IMG/VR virus record: IMGVR_UViG_2681813321_000016
DNA: 8,261 bases
Reading direction: 5' to 3' (one strand)
Source of the DNA: a virus
Taxonomy: Duplodnaviria; Heunggongvirae; Uroviricota; Caudoviricetes
In this document: positions 1-8,261 of the stretch, piece by piece
Layout of the letters: each line of letters begins with the position of its first letter
Position numbering within the stretch: position 1 is the first letter of the stretch
The notes under the pieces: model-generated
Database searches by the model: none
Told to the model about the DNA's origin: nothing
Seen by the model: the letters and a program-made list of their open reading frames with translations, nothing else
Made by a program: the position numbers and the translations under genes

Positions 1-26
1 AATGTTAAAACCAAGGTTCAAGGTAC
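1..26. other. Candidate degenerate hix-like site at the left window edge
   Basis: AATGTTAAAACC-AA-GGTTCAAGGTAC: the central AAAACCAAGGTT is identical to the centre of Salmonella hixL as I remember it, but the outer arms are poorly conserved. At the window edge, so context is missing. Confidence 0.3.
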
Positions 27-114
27 TGTAGTAATGTTTTCCGCTTCAGGGAAAAAATAGCATCCAACCGCAGCACGTTCTTGCTTAAGACGTGCTGCGG
101 CATAATCCCAATGA

Positions 115-465
115 TTACTCCCTGACAGGGTTCGTAGGCCACTCAATATCAGGTGCAGTTGATGTATCAACACGGTTCAGCAACACCCGATACTTTTTCC
201 AGGCTTCCACCACCAGCACGACAAGATGCCGCATACAGTGAACCAGTCAGTCCAGTTTTCAGACAACCAGTGCGTCACCTTTTTGAAGGCGCTTTAAAGC
301 ACGTTTTAATCCAGGTCGGCCTGTCCTTGTTCCGCTTAATTTATCTTCAAATATTTGTTCATATCCTGCACAAACAAGAGCGTTTCGTTGCAGATCTGTA
401 TTCTGGTCATTTGTTGATACCCTTACATAGCCAATCAGCACGCTGAATCTCCCGTCCAAAAGCAC
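115..465 (-). pseudogene. pin: Serine DNA invertase (Gin/Pin/Cin/Hin family) pseudogene; intact N-terminal 68 codons (259..465) then in-frame stops and decayed remnant
   Basis: Minus-strand ORF 259..465 reads LIGYVRVSTNDQNTDLQRNALVCAGYEQIFEDKLSGTRTGRPGLKRALKRLQKGDALVV, nearly identical to the N-terminus of Gin/Pin-type invertases as I recall them, including the catalytic-serine VRVST motif. The expected W after VV is TGA; the continuing frame reads [39 protein letters not shown], still weakly alignable to the invertase core but with a second stop. Likely GTG start at 439-441 with GGGAGA 6-7 nt upstream. Symbol is family-level only. Confidence 0.75.
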
Positions 466-495
466 AAATCATGCCATACAGGCCAGAAACCGCCA

Positions 496-521
496 TTATC
501 TAAAACCTCGGTTTACGAGAA
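496..521. other. Crossover site 1 (gix/hix/pix-like 26-bp site) adjacent to the invertase pseudogene
   Basis: TTATCTAAAACC-TC-GGTTTACGAGAA: two imperfect 12-bp inverted half-sites around a 2-bp core, matching the architecture and much of the sequence of the Gin/Hin crossover sites as I recall them. It sits about 30 bp from the invertase start and is the inverted partner of site 3. Confidence 0.75.
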
Positions 522-668
522 CTCGGCACAAGCGGGGAGAAAATACCGTTACTCAGTACAGCGAATACCTGGACTAATCGACAAACATTCAGCGGTGGCC
601 TTTCTGGTGAACTATCCGGCAATGCTTCTACAGCTGCAAAATTAAAAACTGCCAGGAAAATAAGCAAT

Positions 669-1454
669 GTGGCTTTTGATGGTTCCTCCGATATCACATT
701 AAAAGCAAGTCATGTTGGTGCGTTTGCCTTAGGGAAAACAGGAAGCACCGTTGCGAATGATAAAGCAGTTGGATGGAACTGGAGTAGCGGAGCCTATAAC
801 GCAACTATTAGTGGTGCATCAACGTTAATTATTCATTTTTATATGGGAGAAGGAAGTTGTCCTGCAGCTCAGTTTCGGATTAATTATAAAAATGGCGGTG
901 TTTTTTATCGTTCAGCCCGTGATGGTTATGGTTTTGAAGCCGACTGGTCCGAATTTTACACCACCACCAGAAAACCTTCAGCAGGAGATGTTGGTGCACT
1001 GCCGTTATCTGGTGGTCAACTGAATGGTACACTGGGTATCGGAACATCCAGTGCTCTTGGCGGTAATTCGATTGTATTGGGTGATAATGACACGGGCTTT
1101 AAACAAAATGGCGATGGTAATCTGGATGTTTATGCTAATAACGTCCATGTTATGCGCTTTGTCTCCGGAAGCATTCAAAGTAATAAAACCATAAATATTA
1201 CAGGGCGTGTTAACCCCTCGGATTACGGTAACTTTGATTCCCGTTATGTGAAAGATGTTCGACTTGGTTCACAGCAATATTATGGAGTGAACAACTGGCA
1301 AACATGGTATTTCCGGTGCCCTTCAGGTCATGTATTGTCTGGTATTAATGTTCAGGATACAGGGTCTAACTCTGCCGATAATATAGCGGGCGTTTATTAC
1401 AGACCCGTTCAAAAGTATATAAATGGCACCTGGTATAATGTAGCGAGCGTTTAA
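669..1454 (+). CDS. Tail fiber variable C-terminal tip cassette SvA, silent mirror copy (frame open from 504, no own start or promoter)
   Basis: Translation is identical to the C-terminal 261 aa of the long minus-strand fiber ORF. The frame is open from just after a TAA at 501-503 inside site 1; the ORF track start at 669 is a GTG. Contains the fiber motif [22 protein letters not shown] and C-terminal [14 protein letters not shown]. Confidence 0.7.
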
Positions 1455-1455
1455 T

Positions 1456-1989
1456 ATGATGCACTTAAAGAACATAAAAGCGGGTAATGCTAAAACACTG
1501 GAACAGTATGAGTTAACAAAGAAACACGGAGTTATCTGGCTTTACTCTGAGGACGAAAAAAACTGGTATGAGGAAGTGAAAAACTTTCAGCCAGACACCA
1601 TAAAGATTGTTTACGATGAAAATAATATTATTGTTGCCATAACCAAAGATGCCTCCACACTTAACCCTGAAGGTTATAGCGTCGTTGAGATTCCTGATAT
1701 TACCGCCAACCGGCGTGCTGACGACTCAGGTAAATGGATGTTTAAAGATGGCGCAGTCATTAAACGTGTATATACCGAAGAAGAGTTGCGCCTACAGACG
1801 GAAAACCAGAAAAAAATATTATTACAGCAGGCCAGAGAAAAAACGCAGTTCTGGCAAACACAGCTTACTTTGGGGATTATCACTGATTCAGACAGACAGC
1901 AACTGATGAACTGGATGCGATACGTGCAACAGGTTGAGACAACTGATACCTCGGTTCTTCCTGTAACATTCCCGGAACCACCAGAATAA
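1456..1989 (+). CDS. tfa: Tail fiber assembly protein TfaA (mirror copy)
   Basis: 177-aa ORF starting 2 nt after the SvA stop (translational coupling); [30 protein letters not shown]... is typical of Tfa/U-type tail fiber assembly chaperones; identical to 5035..5568 on the minus strand. Symbol is family-level only. Confidence 0.8.
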
Positions 1990-1992
1990 GAA

Positions 1993-2010
1993 AAGGCCCG
2001 TACGGGCCTT
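1993..2010. terminator. Bidirectional intrinsic terminator between convergent tfa genes
   Basis: Perfect palindrome AAGGCCCGTACGGGCCTT (GC-rich stem GGCCC, loop GTAC) with an A-run upstream and T-rich tract downstream on both strands, placed between the stop codons of the convergent tfaA and tfaB. Confidence 0.6.
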
Positions 2011-2019
2011 AATTTGTTG

Positions 2020-2547
2020 TTATTCTGGTTTCTGTGGCCATTCAGGCTTTGCAGTATCCACACGGCTGACCATAACGCTGTAGCGTTCCCATGATTCCAG
2101 TCGTGTGCGTTCCTCATCAGTTGCCATATTCAGTCTGACAGCACGTTCCAGCGGTTGAATCACAGACTCCGCTTCGGAAAGCAAAGCGGCTTTTTGTAAC
2201 TCTGCCTGCTGTTGCAGTTCCTGTTTTGTATATTCCCGCTTTACTACTTTACCATCCAGAAACTTCCAGTTTCCCGAGATATCGGCGCGACGGTTGGCTG
2301 TTATATTCGGTAACTCAACAACACTTAACCCGTCAGGGTTAAGTGTTGATACGTCTTTCTCAATACAACGAATAATCCCCTTCTGGTCATAAGCTATTTT
2401 TAAAGTATCATCCTGAAAGTTTTTTAATTCGTCATACCAGTTTTTACCGTCTTCTGTATATAGCCAGATAACGCCAGCTTTTTTCGTAAGCTGATACTGC
2501 TCAATGGTTTTGGGGTTTCCGGCGGTAATATTTTTCAGATGTTGCAT
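2020..2547 (-). CDS. tfa: Tail fiber assembly protein TfaB (mirror copy)
   Basis: 175-aa [33 protein letters not shown]..., a paralogue of TfaA along its length; identical to 4477..5004 on the plus strand. Symbol is family-level only. Confidence 0.8.
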
Positions 2548-2562
2548 ATATTCTCCTGATGG

Positions 2563-3438
2563 CTATGCCTGTTCAACGTTATACCAGTTACCAGAAATGT
2601 ATTTTTGTAGTGGTCGTGACACCATCCAGTCATCTCCATCAACCTCACCAATAATTTGCAATCCTGTTGTCACATGACCATTACCTGGTTCGCAAAGTCC
2701 TCCGCGATATAATGTGTCAGAACGTCTGCCTCCCAGACGCACATTTCTGATAAAAGAACTATTCAGGTAATCATTTAAGTTTGAACCCCAGCACCCACCA
2801 AATATATTTCCATCGGTGTTATAACGGACGCCACCCGCAATAAGAGCACCCGGTGAAATAAAGGATTTATCGTTCGGGTTAAACTGCCATAAAGCATCAT
2901 TACCGCCATCGCCACGCATATGAATACATGGAACCGGAAATCCATACTGTTCTGTCAGTAAATACCCAAAGCTGACCGCGCCGGGATAGCCCTGTCCATT
3001 GCGAATGGACAAGCCCTTAACTATCGGCACGTAATGACCACCAGGAGTGGGATTCCAGGCAAACTGCGTCTGAACAAAAGGCGCGGTGGCATTATTCAAC
3101 TGGTCTGCAAATGCGCCACTTCCATCAGGAATTATTCCCTGATGAATATATGCAACCCGCTTATAAAAATCAGCAGATGCGGGTTGAAGCCCAAATGCCA
3201 GTTGTCCATTTGAATAGAATAAAAGGACACCGTCGCCGCCCTGTTTAATACCAGTGTCGTTATCTCCGAGAGTAATGGAATTACCGCCCAGTGCGTTATC
3301 TGTACCAAGCGCCAGCCCACCATCAATTTTGGCCCCGTGGCTGACAGATATAGCACCTGTTCTCAGATTTATAGCGAATGGCCTTAATGGGCCTATATCA
3401 CCGTTTTCGCCTTGTCCTTCAGCCGTCGGAACCTCGGT
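2563..3438 (-). CDS. Tail fiber variable tip cassette SvB, 5'-truncated silent mirror copy
   Basis: The ORF track gives 2563..3099 (TTG start), but the frame is open up to a TAA at 3439-3441. The encoded sequence is identical to the C-terminal part of the plus-strand ORF 3412..4461 yet lacks the first ~54 codons of that cassette, which lie in the unique 161-bp spacer. Confidence 0.6.
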   Translation of the reverse strand, partial: TEVPTAEGQGENGDIGPLRPFAINLRTGAISVSHGAKIDGGLALGTDNALGGNSITLGDNDTGIKQGGDGVLLFYSNGQLAFGLQPASADFYKRVAYIHQGIIPDGSGAFADQLNNATAPFVQTQFAWNPTPGGHYVPIVKGLSIRNGQGYPGAVSFGYLLTEQYGFPVPCIHMRGDGGNDALWQFNPNDKSFISPGALIAGGVRYNTDGNIFGGCWGSNLNDYLNSSFIRNVRLGGRRSDTLYRGGLCEPGNGHVTTGLQIIGEVDGDDWMVSRPLQKYISGNWYNVEQA

Positions 3439-4461
3439 TTACAGGAAACGGTAAACAAGGCTGGTAACGCCGTTCAGCGTTCCGGCGATAAAATGACCGG
3501 AGAACTGAAAATTGGCACGGTGAATGCGCTGCGAATTTTCAATGATGCCTTCGGTCTTATTTTCCGTCGTTCAGAAGATTTTCTTCATTTCATTCCGACG
3601 GCTGAAGGACAAGGCGAAAACGGTGATATAGGCCCATTAAGGCCATTCGCTATAAATCTGAGAACAGGTGCTATATCTGTCAGCCACGGGGCCAAAATTG
3701 ATGGTGGGCTGGCGCTTGGTACAGATAACGCACTGGGCGGTAATTCCATTACTCTCGGAGATAACGACACTGGTATTAAACAGGGCGGCGACGGTGTCCT
3801 TTTATTCTATTCAAATGGACAACTGGCATTTGGGCTTCAACCCGCATCTGCTGATTTTTATAAGCGGGTTGCATATATTCATCAGGGAATAATTCCTGAT
3901 GGAAGTGGCGCATTTGCAGACCAGTTGAATAATGCCACCGCGCCTTTTGTTCAGACGCAGTTTGCCTGGAATCCCACTCCTGGTGGTCATTACGTGCCGA
4001 TAGTTAAGGGCTTGTCCATTCGCAATGGACAGGGCTATCCCGGCGCGGTCAGCTTTGGGTATTTACTGACAGAACAGTATGGATTTCCGGTTCCATGTAT
4101 TCATATGCGTGGCGATGGCGGTAATGATGCTTTATGGCAGTTTAACCCGAACGATAAATCCTTTATTTCACCGGGTGCTCTTATTGCGGGTGGCGTCCGT
4201 TATAACACCGATGGAAATATATTTGGTGGGTGCTGGGGTTCAAACTTAAATGATTACCTGAATAGTTCTTTTATCAGAAATGTGCGTCTGGGAGGCAGAC
4301 GTTCTGACACATTATATCGCGGAGGACTTTGCGAACCAGGTAATGGTCATGTGACAACAGGATTGCAAATTATTGGTGAGGTTGATGGAGATGACTGGAT
4401 GGTGTCACGACCACTACAAAAATACATTTCTGGTAACTGGTATAACGTTGAACAGGCATAG
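3412..4461 (+). CDS. Tail fiber variable tip cassette SvB (complete cassette, currently in the OFF orientation)
   Basis: 349-aa ORF; the TTG at 3412 is probably not a real start, as the cassette proper begins at the site 2 core. Sequence after the site (QETVNKAGNAVQRSGD...) resembles the start of invertible fiber tips in e14/Mu/P1-type systems as I recall them. Contains ALGGNSITLGDNDTGIKQGGDG and C-terminal RPLQKYISGNWYNV. Confidence 0.75.
   Translation: MSFSRRNLGLQETVNKAGNAVQRSGDKMTGELKIGTVNALRIFNDAFGLIFRRSEDFLHFIPTAEGQGENGDIGPLRPFAINLRTGAISVSHGAKIDGGLALGTDNALGGNSITLGDNDTGIKQGGDGVLLFYSNGQLAFGLQPASADFYKRVAYIHQGIIPDGSGAFADQLNNATAPFVQTQFAWNPTPGGHYVPIVKGLSIRNGQGYPGAVSFGYLLTEQYGFPVPCIHMRGDGGNDALWQFNPNDKSFISPGALIAGGVRYNTDGNIFGGCWGSNLNDYLNSSFIRNVRLGGRRSDTLYRGGLCEPGNGHVTTGLQIIGEVDGDDWMVSRPLQKYISGNWYNVEQA
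3422..3447. other. Crossover site 2: hybrid site with conserved core and right half but degenerate left half
   Basis: GCCGTCGGAACC-TC-GGTTTACAGGAA. The right half and core match sites 1 and 3; the left half is instead the mirror image of SvB coding sequence (reverse complement of 3591-3602). Same orientation as site 1, inverted relative to site 3. In the SvB frame it encodes NLGLQE, paralleling YLGLRE at site 3. Confidence 0.65.
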
Positions 4462-4476
4462 CCATCAGGAGAATAT

Positions 4477-5004
4477 ATGCAACATCTGAAAAATATTACC
4501 GCCGGAAACCCCAAAACCATTGAGCAGTATCAGCTTACGAAAAAAGCTGGCGTTATCTGGCTATATACAGAAGACGGTAAAAACTGGTATGACGAATTAA
4601 AAAACTTTCAGGATGATACTTTAAAAATAGCTTATGACCAGAAGGGGATTATTCGTTGTATTGAGAAAGACGTATCAACACTTAACCCTGACGGGTTAAG
4701 TGTTGTTGAGTTACCGAATATAACAGCCAACCGTCGCGCCGATATCTCGGGAAACTGGAAGTTTCTGGATGGTAAAGTAGTAAAGCGGGAATATACAAAA
4801 CAGGAACTGCAACAGCAGGCAGAGTTACAAAAAGCCGCTTTGCTTTCCGAAGCGGAGTCTGTGATTCAACCGCTGGAACGTGCTGTCAGACTGAATATGG
4901 CAACTGATGAGGAACGCACACGACTGGAATCATGGGAACGCTACAGCGTTATGGTCAGCCGTGTGGATACTGCAAAGCCTGAATGGCCACAGAAACCAGA
5001 ATAA
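4477..5004 (+). CDS. tfa: Tail fiber assembly protein TfaB, cognate chaperone of SvB
   Basis: 175-aa ORF with AGGAGA Shine-Dalgarno 4 nt upstream of the ATG; identical to 2020..2547 on the minus strand. Symbol is family-level only. Confidence 0.85.
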
Positions 5005-5013
5005 CAACAAATT

Positions 5014-5031
5014 AAGGCCCGTACGGGCCTT
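5014..5031. terminator. Bidirectional intrinsic terminator (mirror copy of 1993-2010)
   Basis: Same palindrome AAGGCCCGTACGGGCCTT followed by TTTTCTTATTC on the plus strand; lies between convergent tfaB and tfaA. Confidence 0.6.
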
Positions 5032-5034
5032 TTC

Positions 5035-5568
5035 TTATTCTGGTGGTTCCGGGAATGTTACAGGAAGAACCGAGGTATCAGTTGTCTCAACCTGTTGCAC
5101 GTATCGCATCCAGTTCATCAGTTGCTGTCTGTCTGAATCAGTGATAATCCCCAAAGTAAGCTGTGTTTGCCAGAACTGCGTTTTTTCTCTGGCCTGCTGT
5201 AATAATATTTTTTTCTGGTTTTCCGTCTGTAGGCGCAACTCTTCTTCGGTATATACACGTTTAATGACTGCGCCATCTTTAAACATCCATTTACCTGAGT
5301 CGTCAGCACGCCGGTTGGCGGTAATATCAGGAATCTCAACGACGCTATAACCTTCAGGGTTAAGTGTGGAGGCATCTTTGGTTATGGCAACAATAATATT
5401 ATTTTCATCGTAAACAATCTTTATGGTGTCTGGCTGAAAGTTTTTCACTTCCTCATACCAGTTTTTTTCGTCCTCAGAGTAAAGCCAGATAACTCCGTGT
5501 TTCTTTGTTAACTCATACTGTTCCAGTGTTTTAGCATTACCCGCTTTTATGTTCTTTAAGTGCATCAT
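5035..5568 (-). CDS. tfa: Tail fiber assembly protein TfaA, expressed copy downstream of the fiber gene
   Basis: 177-aa ORF whose start lies 2 nt past the stop of the fiber gene on the minus strand (coupled); identical to 1456..1989. Symbol is family-level only. Confidence 0.85.
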
Positions 5569-5569
5569 A

Positions 5570-8261
5570 TTAAACGCTCGCTACATTATACCAGGTGCCA
5601 TTTATATACTTTTGAACGGGTCTGTAATAAACGCCCGCTATATTATCGGCAGAGTTAGACCCTGTATCCTGAACATTAATACCAGACAATACATGACCTG
5701 AAGGGCACCGGAAATACCATGTTTGCCAGTTGTTCACTCCATAATATTGCTGTGAACCAAGTCGAACATCTTTCACATAACGGGAATCAAAGTTACCGTA
5801 ATCCGAGGGGTTAACACGCCCTGTAATATTTATGGTTTTATTACTTTGAATGCTTCCGGAGACAAAGCGCATAACATGGACGTTATTAGCATAAACATCC
5901 AGATTACCATCGCCATTTTGTTTAAAGCCCGTGTCATTATCACCCAATACAATCGAATTACCGCCAAGAGCACTGGATGTTCCGATACCCAGTGTACCAT
6001 TCAGTTGACCACCAGATAACGGCAGTGCACCAACATCTCCTGCTGAAGGTTTTCTGGTGGTGGTGTAAAATTCGGACCAGTCGGCTTCAAAACCATAACC
6101 ATCACGGGCTGAACGATAAAAAACACCGCCATTTTTATAATTAATCCGAAACTGAGCTGCAGGACAACTTCCTTCTCCCATATAAAAATGAATAATTAAC
6201 GTTGATGCACCACTAATAGTTGCGTTATAGGCTCCGCTACTCCAGTTCCATCCAACTGCTTTATCATTCGCAACGGTGCTTCCTGTTTTCCCTAAGGCAA
6301 ACGCACCAACATGACTTGCTTTTAATGTGATATCGGAGGAACCATCAAAAGCCACATTGCTTATTTTCCTGGCAGTTTTTAATTTTGCAGCTGTAGAAGC
6401 ATTGCCGGATAGTTCACCAGAAAGGCCACCGCTGAATGTTTGTCGATTAGTCCAGGTATTCGCTGTACTGAGTAACGGTATTTTCTCCCCGCTTGTGCCG
6501 AGTTCTCGTAAACCGAGGTATTCGATAACGGCGGCAACGGTCGATTTCGCAAGAATATCCCGCCCAACTTTTGTCAGGGTTGCCAGACTGGCAACATCAT
6601 TCCCCGTAAAATACGGAAACCTGTCTGCCGCAGTAGCAAGCCCGGCCAGCGCCGTCAGGGTGGCATCTTTCGGTTGCTTACCCGCAAGCGCGTTAGTCAT
6701 GGTGGTCGCAAAATTCGGGTCGTTGCCCAACGCCGCAGCCAGCTCGTTCAGCGTATTCAGTGCGTCAGGCGACGAGTCCACGAGGGCAGCGATCGCAGCC
6801 ATAACATAAGCCGTGCTTGCGATTTGGGTATTATTCGTTCCCTGTCGCGCAGTTGGTGTTGTTGGCGTTCCGGTCAGTGCAGGACTATTTAAGGGCGCTT
6901 TCTTGTTCGTTTCACCCATTACCGCCTTAACCGCTTTTGGCGTTGCCGCCAGTGACTCGGAAGTGCTGTTGGTCGCACTGCTGAGCTGTACTATCCCCTT
7001 TTTCGTCGTGCTCGCATCCTCCAGCGCCACGGCGGATGCAATATCCTCTGCCCGTTTTGCTGCTGTCTCGGCGCGCGTTGCCGCGGATTCCGCCGTACTT
7101 TTGCTCTGAGCTGCCGCCGTCACACTACCAGCTGCCTCTGATGCTTTCATTGTTGCTGTCGTGGCACTACCTTTCGCTGCTGACGCTTGTCTGGTCGCCT
7201 CATCTTTTGAAGCAGACGCAGATGATGCCGATGACGCCGCTGAACTGGCTGACGATGCGGCTGCCGCCTTAGAGGAAGCAGCATTGTCTGCTGAAGTCTT
7301 TGCATTTGTTTCAGAGGTTTTTGCTGCAGAAGCAGACCTCGCTGCTGCAGTGGCTTGCTCAGTGGCTTTGCCAGCCTTCGTTGTGGCTGTTGAAGCGGAT
7401 GATGCGGCGCTTTCTGCCGATTTTCCGGCGGCGGTGGCACTGGCTGAGGCCTGCCCGGCACTTGTTGACGCGGCACTGGCAGACGACGCAGCCGCTGTTT
7501 TTGAGCCTGCCGCAGCCGAGGCGCTCTGTCCCGCTGCCGTTTCAGAAGACCTGGCGTTTGTCTCAGACGTCTTTGCCGCCTTCGCGGAATTGCCTGCCGC
7601 CGTTGCCGAGGAAGCGGCACTACTGGCGCTTGATGATGCGTTCGTTTCTGATGATTTCGCTGCCTCTTTTGAGGCCGCCGCATCCCGGGCTGAGGTGGCT
7701 GCTTCTGACGCCTTCGTGGTCGCGGCGGATGCAGAAGTGGCTGCTGATTGTTGTGACGCTGCCGCATTCGTTTCTGACGTTTTCGCCGCAGCGGCACTGG
7801 TAGCTGCCGCGCTTTTTGAGGACTCTGCAGCAGCAGCACTTTTCGATGCTTCACTGGCCTTTGTTGATGCCGTTCCTGCGCTGGAAGACGCTGACTGAGC
7901 CGACGACGCGGCCTGTCCGGCTGACGTGCTGGCGGCACGTGCTGAGGCTGCAGCATCGGTTGCATGAGTTACCGCCTCGCTGGCTGATGCACTGGCATCG
8001 CTGGCTGATTTTTTCGCGGCTGCCGTATTCTGTGCAACCGCGGAGGCGTTACGTGACACTTCTTCCACCATCTGCTCAAAGCGGCGCAGTGCCTCCGGTC
8101 GGACATCATCCTCCGTCATGGCACCGAGAAAATCATTCAGCGTACCTGGTCTGGAACCTTCATAGACGGTAATGGTCCCGGCATGTGAAGGCGGAAAACC
8201 TTCAACCAGCAGGGTGACGCTGTACTGACCATGCTCAACATCCATGCTGTAACGTCCGGCT
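5570..8261 (-). CDS. stf: Side tail fiber protein (constant shaft fused to tip SvA), 5'-partial; gene start lies beyond the right edge
   Basis: Minus-strand frame open from the window edge to a stop at 5570 (at least 891 aa). The N-terminal part ([47 protein letters not shown]...) and the Ala/Ser/Thr-rich repeats resemble lambda Stf/StfR-type fibers as I recall them; the [26 protein letters not shown] motif is typical. The constant part ends ...AAVIEYLGL at site 3 and continues into SvA. Symbol is family-level only. Confidence 0.9.
6503..6528. other. Crossover site 3 inside the fiber gene at the constant/variable junction
   Basis: TTCTCGTAAACC-GA-GGTATTCGATAA on the plus strand; its reverse complement TTATCGAATACC-TC-GGTTTACGAGAA differs from site 1 at two positions. 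Encodes IEYLGLRE in the fiber frame, the position where crossover sites sit in Mu G-segment/e14 P-segment-type systems. Confidence 0.8.
7050..8020. repeat. Low-complexity Ala/Ser/Thr-rich repeat region of the fiber shaft
   Basis: The fiber translation here is dominated by A/S/T with recurring KTSETNA, SASAA and ASEAA units. The compositional bias creates long spurious ORFs in other frames (7161..7898 +, 7147..7965 -, 7300..7803 +). Boundaries are approximate. Confidence 0.6.

Follow-up and report, generated by a model that had tools for sequence, protein, structure and literature searches.

The locus treated here raises a plain question: does the invertible tail-fibre segment of a prophage exist in its host genome as two mirrored copies, or only in the deposited sequence? 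The segment lies in an 8,261-nucleotide (nt) stretch of Caudoviricetes DNA (IMG/VR record IMGVR_UViG_2681813321_000016), which was analysed at its full length and is called the window below. An earlier note, made from the sequence alone, described a switch whose segment was present twice as reverse-complement copies, and offered two explanations: a misassembly created by a population that contained both flip states, or a structural variant fixed after aberrant recombination. We favour the former. The mirror duplication is probably not a property of the genome but an artefact, of the assembly or of reads, that stems from a population of mixed orientation. For the latter explanation, an origin in aberrant recombination by the invertase fits poorly with an inner joint that is a butt joint, does not coincide with a recombination site and carries a half-site only.

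Anatomy of the inverted repeat and its two halves

In the switch, the constant 5′ part of a tail-fibre gene (Sc) is in frame with either of two alternative 3′ parts (Sv or Sv′), and each of these has its own chaperone gene (Tfa or Tfa′). State 1 is the orientation in which Sc-Sv is expressed, and state 2 the orientation in which Sc-Sv′ is expressed. A repeat search of the window recovered one very large inverted repeat, with arms at 490-3431 and 3593-6534 and 161 nt between them. In an exact base-by-base comparison, 505-3431 and 3593-6519 were complementary at 2927 of 2927 nt, with 0 mismatches, and the arm coordinates given in the earlier note were thus exact. The 15 further outer bases of the arms held three mismatches (at 495, 501 and 504), because these bases come from the outer half-sites of the crossover sites, which are not the same at the two ends. 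A chance origin of a perfect 2.9-kb inverted repeat is impossible. The repeat is built from the following elements:

496-521, plus strand: crossover site A (TTATCTAAAACC TC GGTTTACGAGAA); the invertase-side half-site and the Sv half-site form the state-2 junction
505-3431, unstranded: left arm, holding a state-2 copy of the invertible segment, with 0 mismatches to the reverse complement of 3593-6519
3422-3447, plus strand: partial crossover site B (gccgtcggAACC TC GGTTTACAGGAA), with an intact centre and an intact Sv′ half-site
3430-3433, unstranded: junction J; the breakpoint lies between 3429 and 3432, with 'AA' as a 2-nt ambiguity or microhomology
3431-6519, unstranded: complete invertible segment in flip state 1, the block common to both flip states
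3432-3592, plus strand: so-called spacer, the 5′ end of Sv′ (coding from 3436) and 4 nt of crossover site
6503-6528, plus strand: crossover site D (TTCTCGTAAACC GA GGTATTCGATAA); state-1 junction, formed by the half-sites of Sv and of the constant part

The two copies were not equivalent. The segment is complete only once (3431-6519), while the left arm is a 95% copy without the 161-163 nt at the Sv′ end, and the claim that the whole segment occurs twice therefore did not hold. Both tip alleles and both chaperones had also been described as duplicated. This was fully true of Sv, Tfa and Tfa′, but the left Sv′ is truncated at its 5′ end and has no crossover site of its own. Similarly, the 161 nt in the centre had been taken for a unique spacer, and their length was correct, but they are not unrelated DNA. 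The stretch 3432-3592 comprises the first 157 nt of the Sv′ coding part and 4 nt of the site, is itself non-palindromic and occurs only once in the window. It matched two single-copy loci (L001 and L002) at 161 of 161 positions; there it immediately follows the invertase-side half-site, as it does in every single-copy relative.

The limits of the two copies could be compared with the limits of the sequence that the flip states share. The outer half-sites of the two states, TTATCTAAAACC and TTATCGAATACC, first differ at the fourth base from the centre, so that the block common to both states is exactly 3431-6519, and state-specific bases begin at 3430 and 6520. The right-hand copy starts at 3430-3432, at the first base common to both states (3431), and ends at 6519. 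Its breakpoint thus lies at the limit of the common block, where a breakpoint would fall by chance at about 3 in 3089 positions. This boundary is a property of a consensus or graph made from mixed reads and not of enzyme chemistry. The 3431 breakpoint of the left copy is arbitrary.

Each half of the window corresponded to a single-copy locus in one state. Among 5426 complete Escherichia coli genomes, strain WS3294A matched best, with 100% identity over 65% of the window, a coverage that is what a single-copy locus gives. Positions 1-3431 of the window were identical at 3431 of 3431 nt to a state-2 copy at the end of the WS3294A record, and positions 3430-8261 could be aligned over their whole length with a state-1 copy close to the start of that record, the only differences being two gaps of 1 nt each. 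The window accordingly holds the invertase-Sv junction of state 2 and the Sc-Sv junction of state 1, and neither of the matching partner junctions. On the right, the segment is joined correctly to the constant tail-fibre gene, and on the left the arm is joined correctly to an invertase remnant.

The locus is the invertible tail-fibre switch of an ST131 'Phi4'-like lambdoid prophage beside an ompW remnant and yciE. In WS3294A its context was gpJ, lom, the tail fibre, two tfa genes, a 60-amino-acid 'recombinase family protein' and a methyltransferase, followed by yciE/yciF. In Phi4 of the ST131 strain EC958 the invertible segment measures 3106 bp, and its sites are ccgccaTTATCTAAAACCTC GGTTTACGAGAA and ccgccgTTATCGAATACCTC GGTTTACAGGAA (Forde 2014, PMC4134206). 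Both orientations were found in nature. The invertase-Sv junction (state 2) was present in 377 of the 5426 complete genomes and the invertase-Sv′ junction (state 1) in 153, and the approximately 530 genomes that carry the locus have it in single copy. Two strains from human samples differed in state (4/0 in state 1, and 4/1-1, an ST131 strain, in state 2), and 26/26 fetched loci spanning the switch had exactly one consistent state each. A comparison with the same prophage in related genomes, called for in the earlier note, therefore returned the single-copy locus only and no duplication. The recognition of a Gin/Pin-type tail-fibre switch was borne out by the sites, the alleles, the chaperones and the two orientations. 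The switch, its sites, its dead invertase and its activation in trans have all been published already.

Among the deposited genomes, state 2 occurred 2.5 times as often as state 1, despite the dead local invertase.

The same locus has been misassembled elsewhere. About 50% of the reads were in the alternative orientation at a sister locus, and the PacBio assembly of EC958 yielded spurious alternative-allele contigs of 8.7 and 12.7 kb for Phi2 and Phi4, with a warning of 'artefactual duplications in phage regions' (Forde 2014, PMC4134206). The record of WS3294A (NZ_CP035819.1), given by RefSeq as 'complete, circular', has an untrimmed terminal overlap over the prophage tail genes. Its last ~10 kb repeat prophage sequence from within ~6.8-16.5 kb of the record; the flanks in this overlap were 100% identical (4229, 4754 and 588 nt) and only the segment was inverted. 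The two 1-nt gaps of the start copy have been annotated by RefSeq as frameshifted pseudogenes. Both states coexisted in the WS3294A culture, and the overlap went unrecognised because the segment is inverted between the copies. A third case is the PLSDB 'plasmid' pBone4_2 (CP054249.1, 33 kb), which contains trpDCBA together with the prophage locus and is most likely a spurious alternative-allele contig.

Four further records (CP054240.1, CP054246.1, CP054248.1 and NZ_CP015087.1, the last of 32.8 kb) also matched the locus.

The inner junction and its possible origins

Arm identity ends at 3431/3593, and junction J precedes the exchange dinucleotide TC (3434-3435) by 2-4 nt on the left. A distance of 161 nt separates the two breakpoints, which are on opposite strands. 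At the other breakpoint, the parental sequence reads ...GCCGTCGGAATGAAATGAAG... and has no likeness to a half-site. The junction is a microhomology joint between nearby positions of opposite strands, a form that is common to fold-back artefacts and so does not discriminate between origins.

The junction was found nowhere else. None of the complete E. coli genomes (n = 5426) spanned it or covered at least 80% of the window. An exact scan with a 27-mer across the junction gave 0 matches in the genome, metagenome and viral contig collections and in all fetched loci, and no plasmid record spanning the junction was detected with BLAST. The hybrid open reading frame of 349 amino acids at 3412-4461 was not on record, whether its first residue was taken as L or M. 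All 20 places that encode the same 322-amino-acid Sv′ protein or 177-amino-acid Tfa protein were single-copy. In many blocks (209 and 111) the longest contig with Sv′ or Tfa genes measured 2-5 kb. Such lengths would be expected if assemblies break at the crossover sites, so that the 3.1-kb segment often forms a contig by itself.

The genome match with the highest coverage (E19, 76% in 10 pieces) was considered as a candidate duplication and was found to be an error-rich single-copy assembly.

We suggest that in the sequenced culture the 3.1-kb segment had one orientation in some cells and the opposite one in others, the flipping presumably being performed in trans by the invertase of another prophage. 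One assembled stretch, in state 2, would have run into the segment from the invertase side and ended 161 nt before its far end. Another, in state 1, would have comprised the entire segment and its connection to the tail-fibre gene. The overlap of the two stretches may have been missed because their common part lay on opposite strands, and they would then have been joined end to end. Such joining could result from contig abutment or finishing, or from a chimeric long read of the fold-back type that connected the two populations of reads. Long-read fold-back artefacts have been defined by a second part no more than 200 bp away on the opposite strand, and make up 0.55-0.6% of Oxford Nanopore Technologies genomic DNA reads (PMC12870357). 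The breakpoints of the window conform to this definition. An artefact of this kind explains why the arms are identical, why the flanks are correct yet different, why one breakpoint coincides with the boundary of the common block and why the structure is absent elsewhere.

Several points weigh against such an artefact. The joining itself is a step that we infer. The joint shows neither Ns nor an adapter remnant nor a loss of sequence quality, and the window is free of errors relative to WS3294A. Standard de Bruijn assemblers cannot put a node in the same contig as its reverse complement unless reads support the joint of 2-nt homology. The fold-back of a single molecule would give mirrored flanks, yet the flanks of the window are two correct and different ones. 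An artefact therefore needs a chimeric or abutted join in addition to a mixed population. For the left breakpoint, 161 nt from the end of the segment, the sole computational rationale is that a contig or read ended there. Finally, studies exist in which interrupted palindromes were introduced into the E. coli chromosome, so a real structure may be possible.

Two other sources of the mirror structure were rejected. A missed PacBio adapter, or a simple template-complement hairpin, as the sole cause would give a symmetric palindrome without a spacer and with mirrored flanks. This was dismissed because the centre consists of 161 nt of genuine non-palindromic sequence and the flanks differ. Had the fold-back started from a DNA end cleaved by the invertase, ends would be expected at 3434/3436 and not at 3430-3432.

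The structure could instead be a genuine and very recent inverted duplication in the chromosome of the isolate, which we regard as less likely. It might have arisen through one illegitimate unequal exchange between sister chromosomes in opposite flip states. It might also reflect two replication template switches in a state-2 chromosome, where the first switch would pass to the opposite strand 161 nt ahead with 2 nt of homology and the second would return at the 12-nt core GTAAACCGAGGT common to the crossover sites. A further possible route is a 2.93-kb direct tandem duplication, followed by inversion of one copy by the invertase through the hybrid half-site B. The 2-nt microhomology between nearby opposite-strand positions resembles that of template-switch products, and the clean, continuous sequence across the joint, with no gap or adapter, suits a real molecule. 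So do the outer junctions, which are both perfect crossover sites and leave the tail-fibre frame intact. Palindromes also participate in the formation of inverted duplications in E. coli (PMC3315005, PMC4245961). However, the junction was absent from the ~530 complete genomes with the locus and from all other collections, and has been neither inherited by independent genomes nor seen to recur in them. A genuine duplication would require two rare events, or a single rare event involving sister chromosomes in different flip states, and then fixation. It would also have to place one breakpoint exactly at the boundary of the common sequence, which is a computational and not a biochemical landmark, with the recombinase cutting 3-5 nt away. 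Forks in E. coli are stalled even by inverted repeats that have a 52-bp spacer, and the Okazaki initiation zone extends over at least 1500 nt (PMC7999016). A perfect repeat of 2.9 kb with a 161-nt centre lies inside this zone, and would be expected to be recombinogenic and counter-selected.

Two origins that invoke a recombinase were contradicted by the sequence. In the one, the invertase would have recombined a true site with a quasi-site in Sv′. The junction does fall within a 26-bp crossover site, and enzymes of the Gin/Cin family infrequently recombine secondary sites. Strand exchange by serine invertases takes place at the central dinucleotide, however, while arm identity here ends 2-4 nt beside it and the partner breakpoint does not resemble a half-site. 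Moreover, the parental sequence GCCGTCGGAATG AA ATGAAG... cannot yield GCCGTCGGAACC TC GGTTTAC at any in-register shared dinucleotide. Aberrant recombination by the invertase, one form of the variant proposed in the earlier note, is therefore very improbable, the inner junction being a butt joint with 2-nt microhomology and a half-site only. The other origin, a natural multi-site inversion system such as Min of p15B or a shufflon, in which segments are shuffled among at least three sites, would be suggested by the three site-like sequences (A, B and D). It is scarcely credible, as B has one half-site only, the copies are identical instead of being different cassettes, and more than one segment or extra cassettes were found in none of the relatives inspected.

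A genuine duplication would have some consequences for the switch. Inversion between A and D would swap identical Sv copies, and the fibre would be locked on Sv unless the crippled site B were used. The switch would thus be 'locked' by duplication instead of by site loss, within a 6-kb quasi-palindrome, and RecA-mediated exchange between the arms would flip the 161-nt centre only. The locus would be a natural example of the inverted site cores of an invertible segment seeding a two-copy inverted duplication. Even so, its interest would be modest, that of a long quasi-palindrome which an E. coli chromosome tolerates, and it would not amount to a new kind of system.

Under the artefact that we favour, the window has a different use. 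The switch itself is not new, and the duplication is most likely not a biological feature. It serves as a warning that phage segments flipping in culture lead to duplicated or mirrored sequence in deposited assemblies. The consequences are inflated gene counts, false 'structural variants' and even false plasmids. At this one locus, public records contain three different forms of assembly error derived from flipping.

Crossover sites, invertase remnant and genes

Sites A and D are full 26-bp sites of the gix/hix type in inverted orientation, with 9-11 of 11 positions on every half-site and the same central dinucleotide (TC/GA). Site B fails the two-half-site score that A and D pass, and its outer half-site is replaced by Sv′ coding sequence of the left arm. 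A and B are in direct orientation, and D is inverted relative to both. In relatives the canonical versions of site B were TTATCTAAAACCTCGGTTTACAGGAA (state 1) and TTATCGAATACCTCGGTTTACAGGAA (state 2); the canonical junction 26-mers included TTATCTAAAACCTCGGTTTACAGGAA and TTCCTGTAAACCGAGGTATTCGATAA. Site A was identical to 'Phi4_3prime', and the outer half of site D matched 'Phi4_5prime' (Table 3, PMC4134206).

The remaining features of the window were the following:

259-441, minus strand: remnant of a Gin/Pin-family serine invertase, 60 codons followed by TGA (Pfam Resolvase N-terminal domain, E = 1.7e-14)
522-1454, plus strand: Sv, left copy, in the left arm (from the list of open reading frames)
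1456-1989, plus strand: Tfa, left copy (Caudo_TAP, by way of the identical right-arm copy)
1993-2010, unstranded: GC-rich palindrome of 18 nt, left copy, between the convergent chaperone genes
2020-2547, minus strand: Tfa′, left copy (Caudo_TAP, by way of the identical right-arm copy)
2563-3431, minus strand: Sv′, left copy, without its first ~157 nt and without a crossover site
3436-4461, plus strand: Sv′, right copy, the alternative 3′ part, promoter-less, within the open reading frame 3412-4461
4477-5004, plus strand: Tfa′, right copy (Caudo_TAP, Pfam)
5014-5031, unstranded: GC-rich palindrome of 18 nt, right copy
5035-5568, minus strand: Tfa, right copy (Caudo_TAP, Pfam), convergent with Tfa′
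5570-6514, minus strand: Sv, right copy, fused in frame to Sc
5570-8261, minus strand: side tail-fibre gene Sc-Sv, with Sc from 8261 to ~6517, running off the window edge, and Sv from 6514 to 5570

No intact serine invertase was found adjacent to the segment. Homology to the invertase reaches ~154, past a second in-frame TGA (stops at codons 61 and 65), and the DNA-binding domain is missing. The stump is identical at 57 of 60 amino acids to the intact 205-amino-acid invertase of the Mu-like phage vB_YpM_3, and has been annotated in relatives as a 60-amino-acid 'recombinase family protein'. Inversion would have to be catalysed in trans, as the local invertase is a dead stump of 60 codons. In Phi4 the truncated invertase is EC958_1582, and the segment was inferred to be flipped in trans by the invertase of another prophage, Phi1 (Forde 2014, PMC4134206). 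In switches of this type a Fis-dependent recombinational enhancer normally sits in the 5′ part of the invertase gene. A scan with the degenerate Fis consensus, itself a weak one, gave two matches (250-264 and 357-371) that were 107 bp apart, versus the canonical 48 bp.

Three observations concern the outer side of the stump. The first bases of the window (1-26) form a hix/gix-like 26-mer, AATGTTAAAACC AA GGTTCAAGGTAC. According to the annotation of relatives, 115-219 on the minus strand is the C-terminal fragment of another tail-fibre assembly gene. A second copy of 66-209, 90% identical, was present ~1 kb further out in relatives. These elements look like relics of older invertible cassettes, or of deletions that an invertase made downstream of the dead gene.

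Sc-Sv is one open frame with a terminal stop only, and its N-terminal part matched Pfam phage_tail_N (E = 5e-42). Sc is the constant part of a lambdoid side tail-fibre gene. The tail-fibre product of relatives has 941 amino acids in state 1 and 968 in state 2. The GC content was ~40-48% in the invertible segment and 56-63% in the constant tail-fibre part, with a step at ~6400-6600. Given this low GC content, and the 97% identity of the cassette to the G segment of a Mu-like Yersinia phage, the locus is a Mu-type cassette grafted onto a lambdoid side tail-fibre gene. Short direct repeats in the Sc coding region (~7200-7810, minus strand) were spaced by multiples of 42 nt (252, 84 and 126), which suggests a 14-residue repeat in the shaft of the tail fibre. 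The perfect GC-rich palindrome of 18 nt at 1993-2010 and 5014-5031 (AAGGCCCGTACGGGCCTT) is probably a bidirectional terminator common to both alleles.

Comparison with known systems

The closest known system is Phi4 of EC958 (PMC4134206), a prophage of the same type with identical crossover sites (ccgccaTTATCTAAAACCTC GGTTTACGAGAA; ...TTATCGAATACCTC GGTTT...). It shares the segment of ~3.1 kb, the truncated and trans-complemented invertase and the layout Sc / Sv-Tfa / Tfa′-Sv′, and relatives of the window occupy the same chromosomal site, by the trp operon and the ompW remnant (ST131 strain 4/1-1). Unlike the window, in which a complete copy and a 95% copy stand head to head across a joint that is not a site, the segment of Phi4 is single-copy and simply flips. 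The Mu-like Yersinia phage vB_YpM_3 (MT374852.1) had 97% nucleotide identity over Sv′-Tfa′-Tfa (window 3430-5624). It also has 26-bp sites of the gix type (TTCCTGTAAACCGAGGTTTTGGATAA) and the invertase to which the retained part of the stump is so similar. In contrast to the window, with its lambdoid phage_tail_N fibre, invertase stump and doubled cassette, that phage possesses an intact invertase of 205 amino acids and the constant part of a myovirus fibre. The switch of the window works like Mu G/Gin and e14 P/Pin.

Tandem inversion duplications (TIDs) of Salmonella comprise three copies, the middle one inverted. These and the palindrome-centred duplications of E. coli (PMC3315005) are template-switch duplications that resemble the window in their inverted copies, their microhomology and the use of nearby opposite-strand sites. 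The window differs from TIDs in having two copies, its structure has been seen in no other genome, and its return to the normal flank would use the core of a crossover site.

The nearest parallels to the duplication itself are the spurious contigs of EC958, the terminal overlap of WS3294A and pBone4_2. There, too, two flip states of one culture gave a duplicated deposit with identical copies and correct flanks. These cases consist of separate contigs or of a direct 16-kb terminal repeat, whereas the window is a fused mirror with an offset of 161 nt. Fold-back reads (Heinz, Meyerson and Li 2026, PMC12870357) provide the likeness for the joint, with a return on the opposite strand within 200 bp and often without foreign sequence. 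They differ in having mirrored flanks, so that reads of the other state must have extended such a joint for the window to carry its two correct flanks.

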